Source: a virus. Taken from it: a stretch of DNA of 10,733 bases. Position 1 is the stretch's first letter. Each line of letters opens with the position of its first letter. The notes below the pieces were generated by a model. It was not told where the DNA came from, ran no database searches, and saw nothing but the letters and a program-made list of their open reading frames with translations. The position numbers and the translations under genes were made by a program. Shown in pieces: positions 1 to 10,379 of this stretch. The stretch lies in UHGV virus genome UHGV-0333516; one strand, 5' to 3'.

Positions 1-160
1 ATATTATTGATACAGAGTGTATTAACGGAAAAATCGTTGTTGCCCATATCAATGGTGGGCAAGAAGCGACACTCAAAAAATTTGTTGAGGACTGGCCGAA
101 CAGGTATCTCGTCCCACTAAATCCTAACTATAAAACTATTGAATTCTGTATCAATAATAT
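1..160. repeat. 16-bp perfect inverted repeat (1-16 vs reverse complement of 145-160) flanking a 128-bp segment
   Basis: atattattgatacaga at 1-16 equals the reverse complement of 145-160; both copies encode IIDTE in the same codon phase on opposite strands. Confidence 0.9.
3..146 (+). pseudogene. orphan C-terminal S24-peptidase segment of the CI-like repressor, in opposite orientation to the gene body
   Basis: Plus frame from position 3, with no start codon, translates to IIDTECINGKIVVAHINGGQEATLKKFVEDWPNRYLVPLNPNYKTIEF. This aligns with the LexA/CI region holding the catalytic Lys (VTVKRL...LLPENSEFKPIVV). It continues exactly where the minus-strand repressor ORF breaks off. Confidence 0.6.
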
Positions 161-614
161 CTGGCTCTACGATAACGATAGAACCTTCTGGTATCGATGG
201 TGAGCCGAGGGGATTGGTCATTGAATCACCACGGACCCGTAGTGCAAATGCCATTTCTGATACAAGGGCGGTAGTATAAACCCACTCTTCAGCATCTTCT
301 TTCCTGACACCAGGCTCCGTCATTGTCCATGAACCCGCCTGAACCCACGAGATTAGGGGGACTTTTTTAACTGCGAATATTTCAGGTTTTAGATTTATCT
401 TTGGTTCAGGCGAGCCTTTTCCGCTAACAAGCCACAGAGGATCGCATTTAAGTGCGTTGGCTAGGGCTTGAAGGTTGGCTCCATTTGGTTGGTAGTCGTC
501 CTTTTCCCATCCAGTAACCGTGACACGGTTCACACCAGTCAAATCAGCCAGTGCTTGTTGTGTCAGGTTCAGTTCTTTTCGCCTTTGGCGAATACGATCA
601 CTCATGTTCATCAT
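117..614 (-). CDS. CI-like prophage repressor (HTH_XRE + N-terminal part of S24 LexA-like peptidase), apparently truncated
   Basis: N-terminal HTH (LTQQALADLTGVNRVTVTGWE) and Ser-motif GDSM are present. The ORF ends ...IVIVEPDIIDTEFNSFIVRI*, before the Lys-containing half of the S24 domain. The start abuts an operator-like site (leaderless-type arrangement). Confidence 0.8.
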   Translation of the reverse strand: MMNMSDRIRQRRKELNLTQQALADLTGVNRVTVTGWEKDDYQPNGANLQALANALKCDPLWLVSGKGSPEPKINLKPEIFAVKKVPLISWVQAGSWTMTEPGVRKEDAEEWVYTTALVSEMAFALRVRGDSMTNPLGSPSIPEGSIVIVEPDIIDTEFNSFIVRI

Positions 615-709: not shown

Positions 710-907
710 ATGCGGAAATCCGACGTGATTAATTATTTCGGCGGAGTTTGTAAAATCGCCGAAGCCCTAGGTATTAAGCATCCGTCTGTTTCAGAGTGGC
801 CTGAGATTATTCCTGAAGGCCGAGCGTACCAGTTAGAAAAAATTACTAACGGGAAACTGAAAGTTGACGTGTCTTTATATCAAAAGACTAACAGTGCTGC
901 GGCATAA
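710..907 (+). CDS. Cro-like small HTH regulator (YdaS-like)
   Basis: 65-aa ORF divergent from the repressor, RBS gggag 8 nt upstream, HTH-like motif FGGVCKIAEALGIKHPSVSEW. Confidence 0.6.
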   Translation: MRKSDVINYFGGVCKIAEALGIKHPSVSEWPEIIPEGRAYQLEKITNGKLKVDVSLYQKTNSAAA

Positions 908-934: not shown

Positions 935-1519
935 GTGGGTAAAGAACCTGAATGGAAAGTTGATAAACAACCAGCATGGCTGGTGGCAGCAATACGAAGA
1001 ACGATTGCTGATTTACCTCATGGCTATGAGGAAGCAGCAGAAATTCTTGGTTTGTATAAATCTGATGATATCACCCCAGCAAAAGATCAATTGCATAACA
1101 GACTGCGTAGCGGTGGGGATCAAATTTTTCCACTTGAGTGGGCCATGGTTTTACAGGATGCCAGTGGTACCAGGCATGTAACAGATGCAATAGCCCGTCG
1201 TAGTAATGGGGTGTTTGTGCCGCTGGTGGTCATTGATGACATTGACAATGGTGACATTAATCAGCGGCTGATGGAGTCAATAGAATGGATTGGCAAGCAT
1301 TCCCAGTACTTACGCAAGGCAACTGCTGATGGAGTTATTGACCAGGCTGAGCGTGAGCAAATCGAAGAGAACAGCTACCAAGTAATGGCGAAGTGGCAGG
1401 AGCATTTAACACTGTTATTTCGTGTTTTTTGTGCGCCGGAAAAGAGTAACGCCCGCGAGTGTGCAGCTCCGGGCGTCGTGGCGTCGATTGCTTCTGGTTG
1501 TGGAGAAACTAACGCATGA
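935..1519 (+). CDS. CII-like phage regulatory protein (CP76/YdaT-like family, assignment by eye)
   Basis: 194-aa ORF directly after cro, GTG start with RBS gagga; its position matches cII-type genes of lambdoid prophages; its stop overlaps the next ATG (ATGA). Confidence 0.45.
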   Translation: MGKEPEWKVDKQPAWLVAAIRRTIADLPHGYEEAAEILGLYKSDDITPAKDQLHNRLRSGGDQIFPLEWAMVLQDASGTRHVTDAIARRSNGVFVPLVVIDDIDNGDINQRLMESIEWIGKHSQYLRKATADGVIDQAEREQIEENSYQVMAKWQEHLTLLFRVFCAPEKSNARECAAPGVVASIASGCGETNA

Positions 1520-1844
1520 ATAGTTTAACGGCAAATAACCGTTTGTCGCAACAGCTGGTGGTCAGCGTCGCTGAACACCTGTTGTTACGGCATGAATGCA
1601 GATTACCAAATCACCTGGCTGTAAGTAACCACAGAGAACTTTACCTGACTGTGGGGGGCGAGTTGTGCAGGAACTTAACCGCTGGTTTCGTGACGGAAGA
1701 GGGCTTTATGTCCATGTTATTCGTTGGGAGCCAGAAACACAGCGCGTTATCTATCTTCGCAAAGACTACCCGCATGAGTGCTTTAGTCCTTTGTGGAAAT
1801 TCAGGCGTGATTTTGTTGAGTGTGAAGGACCACCAGCATATTGA
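1516..1844 (+). CDS. hypothetical protein, reading frame apparently disrupted at a G6 tract (1653-1658)
   Basis: The ATG at 1516 is coupled to the upstream stop. After the G6 run the protein-like reading (RVVQELNRWFRDGRGLYVHVIRWEPETQRVIYLRKDYPHECFSPLWKFRRDFVECEGPPAY*) continues in the adjacent frame to a stop at 1842-1844. One additional G would fuse the two parts. Confidence 0.3.
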
Positions 1845-1932
1845 TTCTGCAATTCCGGGACGTTACACTGCTCAGGCACCTTATAAAGCGGGTGCCGGGA
1901 TTGGCGTCCTGAAATTGTCAACGGCGATGTAT

Positions 1933-1952
1933 GACGCGCCAGCGTCTTTTTT
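1933..1952 (+). terminator. candidate intrinsic terminator
   Basis: gacgc-gcca-gcgtc stem-loop followed by tttttt; lies inside the 386-aa track ORF. Confidence 0.4.
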
Positions 1953-2118
1953 ATCGTCCGCATTTGCTCACATCCAGATTATGGTGGGCTGGGCGGGGGC
2001 ACCGAAAGGTGCGCCGGTCTCCGTTGACGCCGGTTACGCCAACCCCGTCCAGTTCACCACCAGTGAAATTGGCGTTTCCGGTGGTGGAAGTTTTTCACTG
2101 TCAACGGAGGCTGCCATC

Positions 2119-2676
2119 ATGGCTACGATCCCAGCCCTCACTCAACCTGAAATCACCATTGACAACGGCCAGGCCGTTACCACTTCTTTGGCTGTTGCCA
2201 ACTTCTTCTCCAAGCGTCACGACGATGTGCTGAAAAAGATCCGCACTCTGGATTGTTCCCCAGAGTTTTGTGCCCGCAATTTTGCGGAGACATCGATTTC
2301 GGTAAATCAACCGAACGGTGGTACACGCAAGCTCCCTTGCTATCAAATCACACGAGACGGTTTTGCGTTTCTTGCTATGGGTTTCACGGGTAAACGTGCT
2401 GCCCGGTTCAAAGAGGCATACATAAATGCCTTTAACCAGATGGAGAAACAGCTTTCAAAGCCCGCTGTACCGAGCGACGTTGCACATAACGCCAGCGTTC
2501 TCTGTTCCTACATTTCATCAATTCATCAGGTCTGGCTGCAGCAGCTTTATCCTATGTTGGCAAAAGCCGAATCTCCGCTGGCTGTTAGCTTATATGACTA
2601 TATTAATGATGCTTCGGCGCTGGCCAGTCTCATAAATTTGTCGCTGAACCCTTCAGAGGTAAGGGGGCGCAAATGA
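2119..2676 (+). CDS. Rha-family phage regulatory protein
   Basis: Rha-type motif ITIDNGQAVTTSLAVANFFSKRHDDVLKKIR...GGTRKLPCYQITRDGFAFLAMGFTGKRAARFKEAYINAFNQME. The internal ATG at 2119 has RBS ggagg 8 nt upstream. The track ORF 1516..2676 is the same frame; its 5' extension is doubtful. Confidence 0.65.
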   Translation: MATIPALTQPEITIDNGQAVTTSLAVANFFSKRHDDVLKKIRTLDCSPEFCARNFAETSISVNQPNGGTRKLPCYQITRDGFAFLAMGFTGKRAARFKEAYINAFNQMEKQLSKPAVPSDVAHNASVLCSYISSIHQVWLQQLYPMLAKAESPLAVSLYDYINDASALASLINLSLNPSEVRGRK

Positions 2677-2897
2677 TCCGGAATATTTTCAAACGGTTTA
2701 CCAATCATACTTTCCGTTGTCCTCGTCCGGGTCAGTGGTACACCACGCCTGCTGGGCATGTTCTACGTGTTAGCCTGGTTGACCGTGAATGTCAGAAGGT
2801 GGTTTGTGAACCGCTGGGCCGTAATTACCGCGTCAGTATGCCGCTTATAGCCTTTTGCTCCGGAAAAATGTTTAAGCGTCTGGGAGGTGTGGCGTGA
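2673..2897 (+). CDS. hypothetical small Cys-containing protein
   Basis: 74-aa ORF, ATGA overlap with Rha stop, RBS agggggc upstream. Confidence 0.45.
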   Translation: MIRNIFKRFTNHTFRCPRPGQWYTTPAGHVLRVSLVDRECQKVVCEPLGRNYRVSMPLIAFCSGKMFKRLGGVA

Positions 2898-3193
2898 ACT
2901 GTTTTCAGTTTGTGTGCGGATGTGCTTTCGATAACCCGATTCAGCGCCTAATTATGTTGCGTGTTTTGATGTCGGGTTCTTCAGACGGTGAAGGCGAGAG
3001 AGTTATTGATCATCAGGTGCTTGCTGATTTCTGCTGTTGTTCTAAGCAAGCGATATTCAGGGAAACCCTGGCACTGGAAAGAGCTGGTTATCTTCATATC
3101 CGAAAAATTGCAACGCTTACTATTGATGCAAAAGCCAGACTACAACCTGCGCGTGGCTACACAATTCTCATGCTGCGGAAGGAGGTTGTATGA
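2894..3193 (+). CDS. hypothetical protein, possible DNA-binding
   Basis: 99-aa ORF, GTG start overlapping the upstream stop (GTGA), RBS gggagg upstream; alternative start at the internal Met. Confidence 0.45.
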   Translation: MNCFQFVCGCAFDNPIQRLIMLRVLMSGSSDGEGERVIDHQVLADFCCCSKQAIFRETLALERAGYLHIRKIATLTIDAKARLQPARGYTILMLRKEVV

Positions 3194-4185
3194 GCCGTTA
3201 CGCCCCCACACCGGAAGTTATGGCTATTGGTCAAATTAATATTTCCGGCAATGTTACACCTGCGACCTGGTGGAAATATATTCGACTACCCAGTGGGCGT
3301 CCGGATGCGACGGCTATCGCTCTGCTTTCAGAGATCGTTTACTGGTACCGCCCGACAGAGGTCAGGGATGAGCACACCGGAGCGTTGCTGGGATATCGCA
3401 AGCGTTTTCAGGGCGACAAACTGCAAAGAAGCTACCAGGCGTTTGCTGAGCAGTTTGGTTTCGGGAAAAGGGAAACCGCAGATGCGCTGAAGCGTCTGCG
3501 CGATGCAGGGTTTATTACTCTGGATTTACGCACGGTGGAAATGCTCGATGGGGTGAAATGCAGCAATATTTTGTTTGTCGGGATCAACCCACAGGCAATT
3601 GCGGCCATCACCACACCTTCTTCTGTTTCGCCAGAAAGTAACAGCAATAATGCAATCAGCGATACAGCTATTACGTTAAAACGGAACACCCCCCGACGTC
3701 ATAACGGAACAGGGGATACGCCGAATGTTGATACAAATACAGAGATTACTACAGAGATTACTACAGAGATTACAACGGAGACTAAAAACACTATTGGCGC
3801 ATCCGCTGACGCGTCTGCACCAGCGCGTTCTGCCAGACAGGAATATTCACCGGAATTTGAACAGGCCTGGCAGGAATATCCCAAACGTGCTGGTGGTAAT
3901 TCAAAATCCGCCGCTTTTAAAGCCTGGAAAGCCCGAATCAGGGAAGGTGTGACACCCGAAACCATGCTCGACGGTGTGAAACGCTATGCCGCCTGGGTGC
4001 GTGTCTCTGGAAATACCGGTACCCAGTTCGTGAAGCAGGCGTCGACGTTCTTTGGTCCGGATCGTCATTTCGAAGAATCCTGGGAAGTTCCTGCGGTATC
4101 TGCAGCCAGACGCGAGGACCCGTACTTCAAAGCCAGTTACGACAACGTGGACTACAGCCAGATCCCGGAAGGATTCAGGGGGTGA
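3190..4185 (+). CDS. phage replication protein with DnaT-like C-terminus
   Basis: 331-aa ORF with strong RBS ggaaggagg; C-terminal ...DYSQIPEGFRG resembles the C-terminus of primosomal protein DnaT (...SQIPPGFRG); central TEITTEITTEITTE linker. Confidence 0.65.
   Translation: MSRYAPTPEVMAIGQINISGNVTPATWWKYIRLPSGRPDATAIALLSEIVYWYRPTEVRDEHTGALLGYRKRFQGDKLQRSYQAFAEQFGFGKRETADALKRLRDAGFITLDLRTVEMLDGVKCSNILFVGINPQAIAAITTPSSVSPESNSNNAISDTAITLKRNTPRRHNGTGDTPNVDTNTEITTEITTEITTETKNTIGASADASAPARSARQEYSPEFEQAWQEYPKRAGGNSKSAAFKAWKARIREGVTPETMLDGVKRYAAWVRVSGNTGTQFVKQASTFFGPDRHFEESWEVPAVSAARREDPYFKASYDNVDYSQIPEGFRG
3739..3786. repeat. tandem 12-bp direct repeats (about 3.5-4 copies) inside the replication gene
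   Basis: acagagattact x2, acagagattaca, then degenerate acggagactaaa. Confidence 0.8.
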
Positions 4186-4187
4186 TC

Positions 4188-4280
4188 ATGAGTCTTTTGA
4201 ATGAAGTTCAGAAATTCATTGAAGCCCATCCGGGGTGTACTTCCGGAGACATTGCGGATGCTTTTTACGTGGGGGCTTAA
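4188..4280 (+). CDS. 30-aa small ORF (winged-helix N-terminal-like fragment)
   Basis: ATG overlaps the upstream stop; stop overlaps the Dam ATG (TAATG); MSLLNEVQKFIEAHPGCTSGDIADAF resembles the N-terminus of PapI/FaeA-type small regulators. Confidence 0.25.
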   Translation: MSLLNEVQKFIEAHPGCTSGDIADAFYVGA

Positions 4281-7640: not shown

Positions 7641-8012
7641 ATGCGTGATATTCAAATGGTTCTTGAACGTTGGGGGGCATGGGTGGCAAATAATCACGAG
7701 GATGTGGAATGGTCATCTGTTGCTGCAGGTTTTAAGGGATTAATTCCTTCGAAAGTAAAATCCCGCCCGCAATGTAGCGATGACGATGGCCTGATCATTA
7801 GCTCTGCGATGACAGTTCTTAAGAAAAAGGAACCGTATCAATACGAATTACTGGAAATGTATTATGTGTATGGGGTTACATTACGGGTGTTGGGGGTAAA
7901 ACTGGGGATATCACTTAATCAGGTTGTTATCAGACTGCAGAAAGCTGAAGGGTTTATTGACGGTTGTCTGGCAATGTTGGGGGTATCTTTAGAAATTGAT
8001 TGTTACATATAG
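7641..8012 (+). CDS. late-gene antitermination protein Q (small Q family)
   Basis: MRDIQMVLERWGAWVANNHEDVEWSS...SKVKSRPQCSDDD...RLQKAEGFIDGCLAMLGV matches the Q-family pattern of E. coli cryptic prophages; ATG 7641 with RBS gtggag. Confidence 0.8.
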   Translation: MRDIQMVLERWGAWVANNHEDVEWSSVAAGFKGLIPSKVKSRPQCSDDDGLIISSAMTVLKKKEPYQYELLEMYYVYGVTLRVLGVKLGISLNQVVIRLQKAEGFIDGCLAMLGVSLEIDCYI

Positions 8013-8087
8013 TAATAAATTCAATCAAAGTAAATAATCATATTTTATTATAACCTCCTGATGATACCTGTTCATTGGGAGGTTATT

Positions 8088-8705
8088 ATGGATAAAAATG
8101 TAGAGCATGTATTAGTTGATGCAATTGAAAATAAGCAATCTTTAACAGTCGTTTACTTAGGAGGGAGCCAGCCCGGAACATTAAGGAATATTTCTCCGAT
8201 TAGTATAAATGGGGATAAATTGCGGGCAAGATGCCATAGTTCTGGAGCAGTAAAGGTTTTCAATCTTGGGAAAATACAGTTACCCAGTGACTCCTGCGCG
8301 GTATCTATGCACTATGGAGATTTAGAAGTTAAAGCTTATGAGACGATGCAGAGCGTAAATGACAACTTTCATGCCCTTTATCCTGAAGGACGATGGGGTG
8401 TTGATTTTAATGAGCATCGCTTTGCTTTATTTGATTTTTTTAAAAACGGGAAACGAAAAAAAACGGCATTTATGGCAATTGAGTTCAGGGAAAGAGATGA
8501 AGAGAAAATAATAACAGGTGTAACAATTGATATTGGTATATCTGGAACAGTGATTTCTGAGAAGTCCCGAATCCCAAAAAGACGACCATGGGTAGTGGTT
8601 GGTCCCGAACACGGAGAATACAGTACTTATTCAACTTTGGACAAGGCTGCTACAGCGTTTTTTGAGAGGCTTTCGTTGATAGCATCCGGCCTGGAAGATA
8701 ATTGA
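8088..8705 (+). CDS. hypothetical AT-rich cargo protein with WYL-like N-terminal motif
   Basis: Strong RBS gggagg 5 nt before ATG 8088; about 205 aa; visibly AT-rich compared with flanking genes; N-terminal LTVVYLGGSQPGTLRNISPISINGDKLRARCHSSGAVKVFNLGKI resembles the WYL/SH3-like beta-barrel pattern (by eye). Confidence 0.6.
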   Translation: MDKNVEHVLVDAIENKQSLTVVYLGGSQPGTLRNISPISINGDKLRARCHSSGAVKVFNLGKIQLPSDSCAVSMHYGDLEVKAYETMQSVNDNFHALYPEGRWGVDFNEHRFALFDFFKNGKRKKTAFMAIEFRERDEEKIITGVTIDIGISGTVISEKSRIPKRRPWVVVGPEHGEYSTYSTLDKAATAFFERLSLIASGLEDN

Positions 8706-8835
8706 TTTTATGTTTGGTATTCAGAGTTCGCCGTGCTTAAGAAAGTCAAGATTCTAAAAATACTGAATGAGCTACTTGTGTTATAACAAAAATGCTATTA
8801 GTGTGTTAAGAGTGGTTACTTCGCCACACAACTTA

Positions 8836-9329: not shown

Positions 9330-10379
9330 ATGCTTAATACTGTAAAAATATCCAGTTGTGAGTTAATCAACGCCGACTGCCTGGAATTTATCCGGTCGTT
9401 ACCCGAAAATTCTGTTGACCTGATAGTCACGGACCCGCCGTACTTTAAAGTGAAGCCTGAGGGCTGGGATAACCAGTGGAAGGGCGACGATGATTACCTG
9501 AAGTGGCTGGACCAGTGTCTGGCGCAGTTCTGGCGGGTGCTGAAACCTGCCGGAAGTCTTTACCTGTTCTGTGGTCATCGCCTGGCATCTGATATCGAAA
9601 TCATGATGCGTGAACGCTTCAGTGTGCTGAACCATATTATCTGGGCGAAGCCGTCCGGACGCTGGAACGGATGCAACAAGGAAAGCCTGCGGGCGTATTT
9701 CCCCGCCACAGAGCGCATTCTGTTCGCGGAACATTATCAGGGGCCGTATCGTCCGAAAGATGCCGGGTATGAGGCGAAGAGCAGGGCACTGAAACAGCAT
9801 GTGATGGCCCCGCTGATTGCTTACTTTCGTGATGCGCGCGCTGCCCTGGGGATAACGGCAAAACAGATTGCAGATGCCACAGGAAAGAAAAACATGGTGC
9901 CGCACTGGTTCAGTGCCAGTCAGTGGCAGCTACCGAACGAAAGCGATTATCTGAAATTACAGTCGCTGTTTGCCCGGGTGGCAGAAGAGAAACATCAGCG
10001 GGGAGAACTGGAAAAGTCCCATTACCAACTGGTCAGCACATACAGTGAGCTGAACCGGCAGTATACGGAACTGCTGAGTGAATATAAAAATTTGCGGCGG
10101 TATTTCGGTGTGACGGTGCAGGTGCCGTACACCGATGTGTGGACGTATAAACCGGTGCAGTACTATCCAGGGAAACATCCGTGCGAAAAACCGGCAGAAA
10201 TGCTGCAGCAGATAATCAGCGCAAGTAGTCGTCCTGGTGATCTGGTTGCGGATTTTTTCATGGGGTCGGGTTCAACGGTAAAAGCGGCGATGGCACTGGG
10301 GCGTCGTGCGATTGGTGTTGAGCTGGAGACCGGACGTTTTGAGCAGACAGTCAGGGAAGTTCAGGATTTAATCGTTTGA
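9330..10379 (+). CDS. DNA methyltransferase (beta-class N6A/N4C type; motif IV DPPY precedes motif I)
   Basis: LIVTDPPY near the N-terminus and DFFMGSGST near the C-terminus; 349 aa. Confidence 0.85.
   Translation: MLNTVKISSCELINADCLEFIRSLPENSVDLIVTDPPYFKVKPEGWDNQWKGDDDYLKWLDQCLAQFWRVLKPAGSLYLFCGHRLASDIEIMMRERFSVLNHIIWAKPSGRWNGCNKESLRAYFPATERILFAEHYQGPYRPKDAGYEAKSRALKQHVMAPLIAYFRDARAALGITAKQIADATGKKNMVPHWFSASQWQLPNESDYLKLQSLFARVAEEKHQRGELEKSHYQLVSTYSELNRQYTELLSEYKNLRRYFGVTVQVPYTDVWTYKPVQYYPGKHPCEKPAEMLQQIISASSRPGDLVADFFMGSGSTVKAAMALGRRAIGVELETGRFEQTVREVQDLIV

Follow-up and report, generated by a model that had tools for sequence, protein, structure and literature searches.

Replication origins that lie inside the initiator gene and combine iterons with an AT-rich segment are already textbook knowledge for the phages lambda and SPP1. 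In the lambda origin, four dyad iterons of 18-19 bp precede an AT-rich stretch of 38-40 bp, which the O protein opens (PMC3349717, PMC5043065), and lambda O has also been reported to bind single-stranded DNA (PMC7466680). In SPP1, oriL is located inside gene 38, which encodes the replisome organiser G38P, and its AB boxes adjoin an AT-rich unwinding element (PMC5737612). Here we analyse a 12-bp tandem array, and the longer units found upstream of it, inside the replication-initiator gene of a 10,733-nucleotide stretch of the virus genome UHGV-0333516 (hereafter, the window). From comparison with related loci we judge it rather probable that the segment at about 3638-3786 is a lambda-type replication origin placed in the linker-coding part of the initiator gene, with 23-nt iterons and a 12-mer opening element.

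The array (Table 1) is in frame in the open reading frame (ORF) 3190-4185, where it encodes TEITTEITTEITTE within ...DTNTEITTEITTEITTETKNT.... A preliminary description of this DNA had reported three near-perfect copies and one degenerate copy of the repeat at 3739-3786, coding for a linker of the replication protein, and both statements were confirmed. The copies were recovered by direct reading, by Tandem Repeats Finder (3738-3781, period 12, 3.7 copies, 93% matches) and by a search of the window with up to 2 mismatches, which gave 5 matches where 0.45 were expected, a number that none of 200 shuffles got. The encoded residues, 184-199, fall within a segment (residues 145-216) that is predicted to be disordered, with AlphaFold confidence values (predicted local distance difference test, pLDDT) below 50. 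By nearest-neighbour free energy no other 40-60-nt duplex stretch of the gene is less stable than the array, which belongs to the top 3% of the whole window for low stability, with a GC content of around 33% (28-35%) versus around 50% for the gene. The remark that no AT-rich region is adjacent was therefore mistaken, as the array itself is that region; its stability is below that of its surroundings and it adjoins putative initiator sites, in the manner of a DNA-unwinding element. When the copy number was compared across relatives, as the preliminary description had suggested, two perfect copies were found in the relative L004 (gene of 984 bp), three in the window and four in the relative L003 (gene of 1008 bp), and one or two copies occur within protein clusters with at least 97% identical N-terminal domains. 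In the array, the close relatives differ in nothing but copy number, and slippage-driven changes in it (1-4) seem to be tolerated.

The conservation of the array was studied by a genome scan with one genome per species, seeded only on two peptide motifs of the N-terminal domain of the initiator. This yielded 80 loci from Enterobacterales, Acinetobacter, Bacillaceae, Lachnospiraceae, Syntrophomonas, Chloroflexota, cyanobacteria and Rickettsiaceae, which were reduced to 47 non-redundant genes (<85% identity, GC 31-63%). The word ACAGAGAWTAC, with at most one mismatch, was found 300-640 nt 3' of the YWYRP codons in 43 of these 47 genes, reaching there a density of 5.13 per kb versus 0.033 per kb elsewhere on the same strand (155-fold) and 0.004 per kb on the other strand. 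In searches with the protein, the N-terminal domain was attached to several unrelated C-terminal domains, and it is followed by a variable linker and then always by a T(N/Y)TE(I/N)TTE(I/N)T-like peptide, the linker peptide varying among homologues except at the DNA elements. The absence of the repeat from orthologues with an otherwise conserved protein, which the preliminary description had named among the findings that would speak against it, was not what we observed, since the word is present in essentially all homologues, down to around 36-40% protein identity, and is conserved as DNA. An information-content profile of 44 anchored homologues further revealed the consensus GAGAC(A/G)(A/T)AT leading into the first 12-mer, to which the junction block of the window corresponds.

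To avoid circularity, synonymous sites were examined in copies defined by the peptide alone, T[EK][INT][TSI]. Thr is encoded by ACA in 67 of 69 cases versus 39% elsewhere in the same genes, and Glu by GAG in 51 of 54 versus 39% elsewhere in the same genes (Fisher p 2e-17); the corresponding figures are 30 of 31 for ATT (Ile) and 28 of 30 for AAT (Asn). The invariant YWYRP/LQRSY residues of the N-terminal domain served as a control for saturation, and there the Pro codons were CCG (16), CCA (16), CCT (10) and CCC (5), and the Arg codons were spread over five. Moreover, the reading frame differs in 12 of 100 copies, where ..AGAGATTAC is translated as YRDY, NRDY or DRDY. The word is always on the sense strand, and neighbouring copies are spaced by 12 bp in 40 of 56 pairs, the others by 11, 13, 15 or 24-36 bp. 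With the synonymous sites fixed, the control residues scrambled and these copies out of frame, the pattern is not that of a constraint on the peptide only: the array is selected as a nucleotide sequence.

Upstream of the array, the gene contains four units in a 23-nt register (U1 to U4, Table 1). The clearest pair within them is ACGTTAAAACGGAACA (3673-3688) and ACGTCATAACGGAACA (3696-3711), a direct repeat with a spacing of 23 whose two members are mutually out of frame; a pattern search of the window for this pair gave 2 matches against 0.27 expected, a count also reached by 6 of 200 shuffles. This pair was at one point taken as two isolated 16-nt iterons, a description that was replaced by the four-unit register after the comparison of the family. 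As U1 is weak, it is safer to speak of three good units in the window than of four. In the family, about four units of 22-23 nt lie directly 5' of the array in every lineage, and the 92 nt located there showed their best self-similarity at a lag of 22 (31 genes) or 23 (9 genes) in 40 of 44 non-redundant homologues, whereas the best lags were scattered in a control of the same length from the part coding for the N-terminal domain. A lag of 22-23 was likewise the best in 28 of 30 non-redundant viral loci, covering all subtypes of the N-terminal domain. Since 22-23 is not a multiple of 3, the units are read in differing frames and are hence repeats of DNA and not of peptide; they encode residues 150-180, within the linker predicted to be disordered. 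Their spacing corresponds to about two helical turns, and many of them show dyad symmetry (for instance TTACGTTGAAACGTAA, CTCCCGAAAAAACGGGAG, GAGTGCAAATTGCACTC and TTCCCCACGGGGAA), although the output of the automatic dyad search was noisy and the lag analysis was relied on instead. We propose, on these patterns, that the 23-nt units are binding sites of the N-terminal domain.

A run of six C (3689-3694) is located inside U3. The database proteins P0059, P0060, P0080 and P0037, which carry the same N-terminal domain as the window, change frame at ...KRNTP, as would fit a one-base change in the C run; beyond this point they read the array as QRLLQRL. In P0053 and P0034 the shift occurs at other points nearby. 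The run may be a hot spot either for frameshifts or for sequencing errors in short-read assemblies.

The array is shared by initiators with different N-terminal domains. Viral contigs were scanned for the exact 23-mer ACAGAGAWTACWACAGAGAWTAC, giving at least 120 loci, of which 118 have the array in frame within an ORF. Further examination of 114 placed it around 140-250 amino acids into the protein, and these 114 proteins span at least five subtypes of N-terminal domain, a number obtained by inspection of motifs and not by formal clustering. The subtypes are that of the window (LLSEIVYWYRP), the LNEAIVLQQ..YWL...FPFWSESTLKR type, the AVIFFGQIFYWQDK type of Shiga toxin (Stx) 2a phages, the AALLNQLIYWSDRT type and the LLSQIVYWYLPSK type, and further ones exist. 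Transitive (single-linkage) BLASTP puts all of them in one cluster, which we take as one superfamily. Each subtype has four 23-nt units of its own kind, as in CCATCRGGTCAAAATGNCC versus CAATGGAWAGT..AAACTTAA, and all of these abut the same array. In these comparisons it is the 23-nt units that look like specificity sites, the 12-mer word being what the subtypes have in common.

Taken together, these data suggest the following mechanism. The three to four units of 22-23-bp period (3638-3729) would be iterons bound by the winged-helix-like N-terminal domain; the array that abuts them would provide the conserved, A-rich segment of low stability where the duplex opens; and the host helicase would be recruited through the exchangeable C-terminal domain. 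The binding of the units by the N-terminal domain, the start of melting in the array and the origin activity itself are what we infer from sequence comparison. Having in mind that the conservation of ACAGAGAWTAC exceeds what AT-richness needs, the array is probably also read in a sequence-specific way, for example as single-stranded DNA by the initiator. A more far-reaching reading, which we hold tentatively and regard as possible rather than probable, is that ACAGAGAWTAC repeated every 12 bp serves a very large superfamily of initiators, from phages and prophages alike, as a universal start signal that is read sequence-specifically (Proteobacteria, Bacillota, in degenerate form Bacteroidota, cyanobacteria and others). 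The type-specific 23-bp iterons would then only position the initiator, the word would be read, probably single-stranded, by a part of the initiator common to the subtypes or by the helicase, the primase or another conserved replication protein of the host, the AT-rich region of lambda would be a decayed copy of it, and the word would be the joint at which N- and C-terminal modules are exchanged.

Several points weigh against the proposed origin. Shared ancestry of the homologues and the movement of phage genes from host to host mean that the counts given above do not represent independent events. Because the word itself was the seed of the viral scan, the frequency with which the word is absent is not measurable from it. 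In the window, the weakness of U1 and the number of shuffles that matched the pair mean that the case for iterons is carried by the family and not by the window alone. The array is only moderately AT-rich, at 33% GC, and several other places of the window are less stable. The parallel with lambda is one of layout plus a single alignment through a shared C-terminal module. Finally, an unwinding element needs nothing but low stability, so that a pure opening element does not account well for the extreme conservation of the word, which would also allow a binding site.

This last point keeps alive the alternative that the 12-mers are duplex binding sites. They would themselves be the iterons of the N-terminal domain, as proposed in the preliminary description; the 23-nt units would then be auxiliary or bending sites. 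Both the domain and the word are highly conserved, and the conservation of the reader would account for that of its site; conservation peaks in the block made of the first copy and its 5' junction; and other initiator genes are known to contain tandem head-to-tail sites, as in the RepA_N plasmids. We nevertheless consider this alternative unlikely. Iterons are expected to change with the DNA-binding domain, and here the identical 23-mer accompanies at least five little-similar subtypes of the domain while it is the 23-nt units that change with the subtype. The contiguous spacing of 12 bp is out of helical phase (around 11 or 22 bp), in contrast to that of the 23-nt units, the copies vary from 1 to 4 among near-identical proteins, and the array aligns with the AT-rich segment of lambda and not with its iterons. 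The earlier suggestion of a lambda-like origin inside the initiator gene, at its inter-domain linker, is thus strongly supported by comparison, and its identification of the array as the iterons is probably wrong.

The two remaining explanations would separate the array from replication. The word could be kept as a signal in the mRNA (pausing, autoregulation, processing) or as a recombination patch for the exchange of modules, in agreement with its constant presence on the sense strand, with mosaic joints lying exactly at the array or just after it, and with the attachment of the same N-terminal domain to at least five unrelated C-terminal domains right behind it. However, the constancy of strand is forced by the coding frame and says little, a scan of 3300-4200 against Rfam at E values up to 1 gave no match, no slippery heptamer is present, and a recombination patch alone would not fix a word across phyla; the coupling to the 22-23-nt units and the match with the layout of the lambda origin point to replication instead, making this explanation improbable. 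The preliminary description had also considered a linker of variable copy number; we give hardly any credence to the array being an ordinary peptide linker of this sort, generated by replication slippage and with no function as DNA. Its basis stands: disorder is predicted for the linker, the number of perfect copies ranges from 1 to 4 among close relatives, and tandem repeats also occur in the linkers of other initiator types. Left unexplained are the synonymous sites, fixed across phyla but scrambled at invariant residues, the copies in other reading frames and the 155-fold density at a single position of the gene. Slippage would account for identity within one genome and not for that among Serratia, Lysinibacillus and Lachnospiraceae, and protein identities of 36-60% exclude very recent transfer.

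The exchange of modules is apparent at the joints of the gene. Matches to phages in megablast start at gene positions 549, 602 or 647, at the array or just after it (window 3738-3840); the 'O' genes of Stx phages match the window from the first 12-mer onward with 88-94% identity, and other lambdoid phages only from just after the array. At least five unrelated C-terminal modules are joined to the N-terminal domain of the window directly after the array, namely that of the window, KPENVS..WIKFRREKRQPLTE, DUF6017, the IDYRAFFDAYNEILG type and a lambda-O-like one; the Phg_2220_C module occurs in another subtype of the N-terminal domain. The exchange of modules at the array is better seen as a consequence of its conservation than as its cause, and the account proposed here for the array, if right, would explain why the mosaic joints of these initiators fall at this spot.

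The initiator itself was compared with protein and structure databases. At identical loci of E. coli it is annotated as 'replication protein' or 'LvrA C-terminal domain-related protein', and the name 'primosomal protein I' comes from depositor annotations only. AlphaFold pLDDT is 85-96 across residues 1-144 and 82-94 for residues 217-300. For the N-terminal domain, which is presumed to bind the origin and is conserved from Enterobacterales to Bacillota, Acinetobacter, cyanobacteria and Chloroflexota, Foldseek against PDB gave weak winged-helix matches, including the N-terminal domain of DnaD (2v79), and nothing at E <= 0.001, for which reason we call it winged-helix-like and no more. A faint match of this domain to Pfam HTH_36 (E 0.018, search at E up to 10) is the exception to an otherwise negative search of Pfam and NCBIfam with the protein and with its C-terminal part, even at E up to 10; the whole protein gave no match in a sequence search of PDB, and Pfam models are also lacking for most of the N-terminal subtypes and C-terminal modules of the superfamily. 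The C-terminal domain matches phrog_26426 and phrog_1701 'DnaD-like helicase loader' in PHROG, and its DNA is 84-94% identical to that of many lambdoid and Stx phages having other N-terminal domains. The label 'DnaT-like' used in the preliminary description could not be maintained, as no family model or structure of DnaT was matched in Pfam, NCBIfam or the PDB sequence search.

Membership in the lambda O family is not claimed either. The comparison by hhalign of the N-terminal domain alignment with lambda O was not significant (probability 0.1, E 0.64), BLASTP linked lambda O to none of the subtypes, and the 'O-like' matches in PHROG are weak and extend over residues 73-213, including the low-complexity linker. 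A lambda-O-like C-terminal domain is present in some relatives.

Another type of initiator was found outside the window, in the proteins P0077-P0115, which combine an N-terminal domain of Pfam HTH_36 with the C-terminal domain of the window and do not have the ACAGAGAWTAC array. Their linkers contain copy-number-variable tandem repeats of their own (SGAANSPGSAGVAPGG..., EPVKEPVNEP), possibly origin repeats of another type.

The window corresponds to the early-right region of a CPS-53/KpLE1-type lambdoid prophage from E. coli. As shown in Table 1, the replication gene is preceded by regulatory genes and two small ORFs, and it is followed by genes for a Dam methylase, a LexA-like protein, RusA, a KilA-N protein, a DUF968/HNH protein and Q. 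As neither a helicase nor a loader is encoded downstream of the initiator in the window, the module can be called 'initiator-solo'. Copies of the gene, some of them identical, are present in E. coli chromosomes, with at least 80% of the gene in 220 of 5,426 complete genomes.

Other features of this neighbourhood deserve mention. The ORF at 2894-3193 (99 aa) overlaps the start of the replication gene by 4 nt and matches phrog_4617 'replication initiation protein' (E 4e-29) over only the first 93 positions of this 223-long profile; it may derive from another type of initiator, either as a remnant or as a separate N-terminal piece. On the other side, in the relatives L003 (2505-2999) and L004 (2481-2975) the 495-bp gene yfdN, for a regulator of the PerC family, lies between the replication gene and dam; it is missing from the window (4186-4234) and from the identical locus L002, where the leftover fragment is annotated as an incomplete pseudogene. 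The divergent intergenic space between the cI-like repressor gene and cro holds a 22-nt tandem repeat, CATGTAGGATTCCTGACATTGG (637-678, 1.9 copies), probably operator sites of the immunity region, and a 12-nt tandem repeat, AGTGTCTGGCGC (9502-9535, 2.9 copies, 82% matches), is located within the DNA methyltransferase gene 9330-10379. The most AT-rich and least stable DNA of the window comes just after Q (7994-8060, with 10-13% GC over 40-60 nt at around 8000-8050) and is followed by an AT-rich gene (8061-8705; phrog_8498, unknown function), and the AT-rich region at 7994-8760 looks like a foreign insert at the position of the late promoter.

Table 1. Features of the initiator gene and of its surroundings in the window.
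Feature	Position	Strand	Remarks
cI-like repressor	117-614	-	
cro	710-907		
cII-like gene	935-1519		
Rha/Ash regulator	1516-2676		
Small ORF	2673-2897		
Small ORF	2894-3193		
Replication-initiator gene (replication protein)	3190-4185	+	331 aa, from the ORF list and its translation; PHROG phrog_270 'replication initiation protein', E 2e-77
N-terminal winged-helix-like domain	3190-3621	+	Residues 1-144; motifs IVYWYRP and DKLQRSYQAFAEQFGF
Inter-domain linker	3622-3837	+	Residues 145-216; holds the whole proposed origin
Unit U1	3638-3660	+	23-nt register; weak in the window
Unit U2	3661-3683	+	23-nt register
Unit U3	3684-3706	+	23-nt register
Unit U4	3707-3729	+	23-nt register
Junction block	3730-3738	+	GATACAAAT; matches the family consensus
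12-bp tandem array	3739-3786	+	Codes for residues 184-199 (TEITTEITTEITTETK)
Array unit 1	3739-3750		ACAGAGATTACT
Array unit 2	3751-3762		ACAGAGATTACT
Array unit 3	3763-3774		ACAGAGATTACA
Array unit 4 (degenerate)	3775-3786		ACGGAGACTAAA
C-terminal helical domain	3838-4185	+	Residues 217-331

If the proposed reading is true, the window holds the unmapped origin of a common type of E. coli prophage, and a test combining the short word with the 22-23-nt periodicity would locate the origins of unstudied phages and prophages, which number in the thousands and span many phyla. Another consequence would be an explanation for the conserved low-complexity look of the linker peptide (TNTEITTEIT), which might otherwise pass for a protein motif. 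The textbook view that the DNA beside iterons of the lambda type needs only to be AT-rich would be challenged, since a word fixed across phyla calls for a sequence-specific reader. A 12-bp-periodic word fixed at synonymous sites across phyla and subtypes was not described in the open-access literature searched, although an earlier mention is possible in subscription journals, for example in the comparisons of lambdoid origins of around 1980; when full texts were searched for ACAGAGATTAC, ACAGAGAATAC, the longer DNA word, or one of the peptides TEITTEI, TENTTEI and TEITTEN, the papers returned were all unrelated, such as primer lists.

Among the described systems, the likeness to lambda is found in the position of the proposed origin in the initiator gene, between a DNA-binding N-terminal part and a helicase-recruiting C-terminal part, and in its composition of around four initiator-specific repeats with partial dyads, about two turns apart, with an A-rich stretch of low stability on their 3' side. 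The window shows the linker position, at least three periodic, replicon-specific repeats and the stretch of low stability 3' of them. A direct alignment was provided by the viral locus L093, where a different subtype of N-terminal domain is joined to the C-terminal domain of lambda O. The DNA 3' of its array is around 90% identical to lambda, and the array (ACAGAGAATACAACAGAGATTACTTCAGAGAGTACAACAGAAACAGATCATTCG) aligns base for base with lambda GACACAAAAGACACTATTACAAAAGAAAAAAGAAAAGATTATTCG, just 3' of iteron 4, so that in this alignment the array is the positional counterpart of the AT-rich region of lambda. The differences are that the N-terminal domain of the window has no significant similarity to lambda O, that the AT-rich stretch of lambda is a degenerate A-run without clear repeats where the window has a clean 12-bp array of a word kept across phyla, and that no P-like loader or helicase gene comes after the initiator of the window.

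In SPP1, whose oriL has been defined experimentally, the origin is likewise embedded in the gene of the organiser, and the unwinding element is itself a short coding tandem repeat. This AT-rich element (L210 2590-2630) is a repeat of AACAATGAW in the linker, AACAATGATAAC AATGAAAAC AATGATAAC, coding for NNNDNNENNDNK, and it comes after GAAACGACA and GAAAAAGACAC repeats. ACAGAGAWTAC is absent from gene 38, which has an analogous repeat only, and SPP1 differs also in the family of its N-terminal domain and in encoding its own loader and helicase. Coding tandem repeats may be a general form of unwinding elements inside initiator genes.

Closer relatives are the initiators of cultured phages annotated as 'DnaD-like' or 'replication initiation O-like', which belong to the same superfamily of N-terminal domains and differ in their hosts and C-terminal modules. 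Units of 22-23 nt followed by the array or by a degenerate form of it were found in the Bacillus phages phIS3501 and BtCS33, in Acinetobacter phages, in Staphylococcus 42E and in Bacteroides B124-14, the layout of the array being like that of the window in phIS3501 and degenerate in 42E and B124-14; in the literature searched there was no mapped origin for these phages, nor the word in a phage context.

Short periodic motifs that lie in an unwinding region and are read in a sequence-specific way, being more than plain AT-rich DNA, are known from the DnaA-trios and 13-mers of bacterial oriC. These differ from the array in their initiator, the AAA+ protein DnaA, in their period of 3 nt or 13 nt and in their location, which is not inside a coding sequence, and as a precedent for an opening element that contains a conserved word they come closest.

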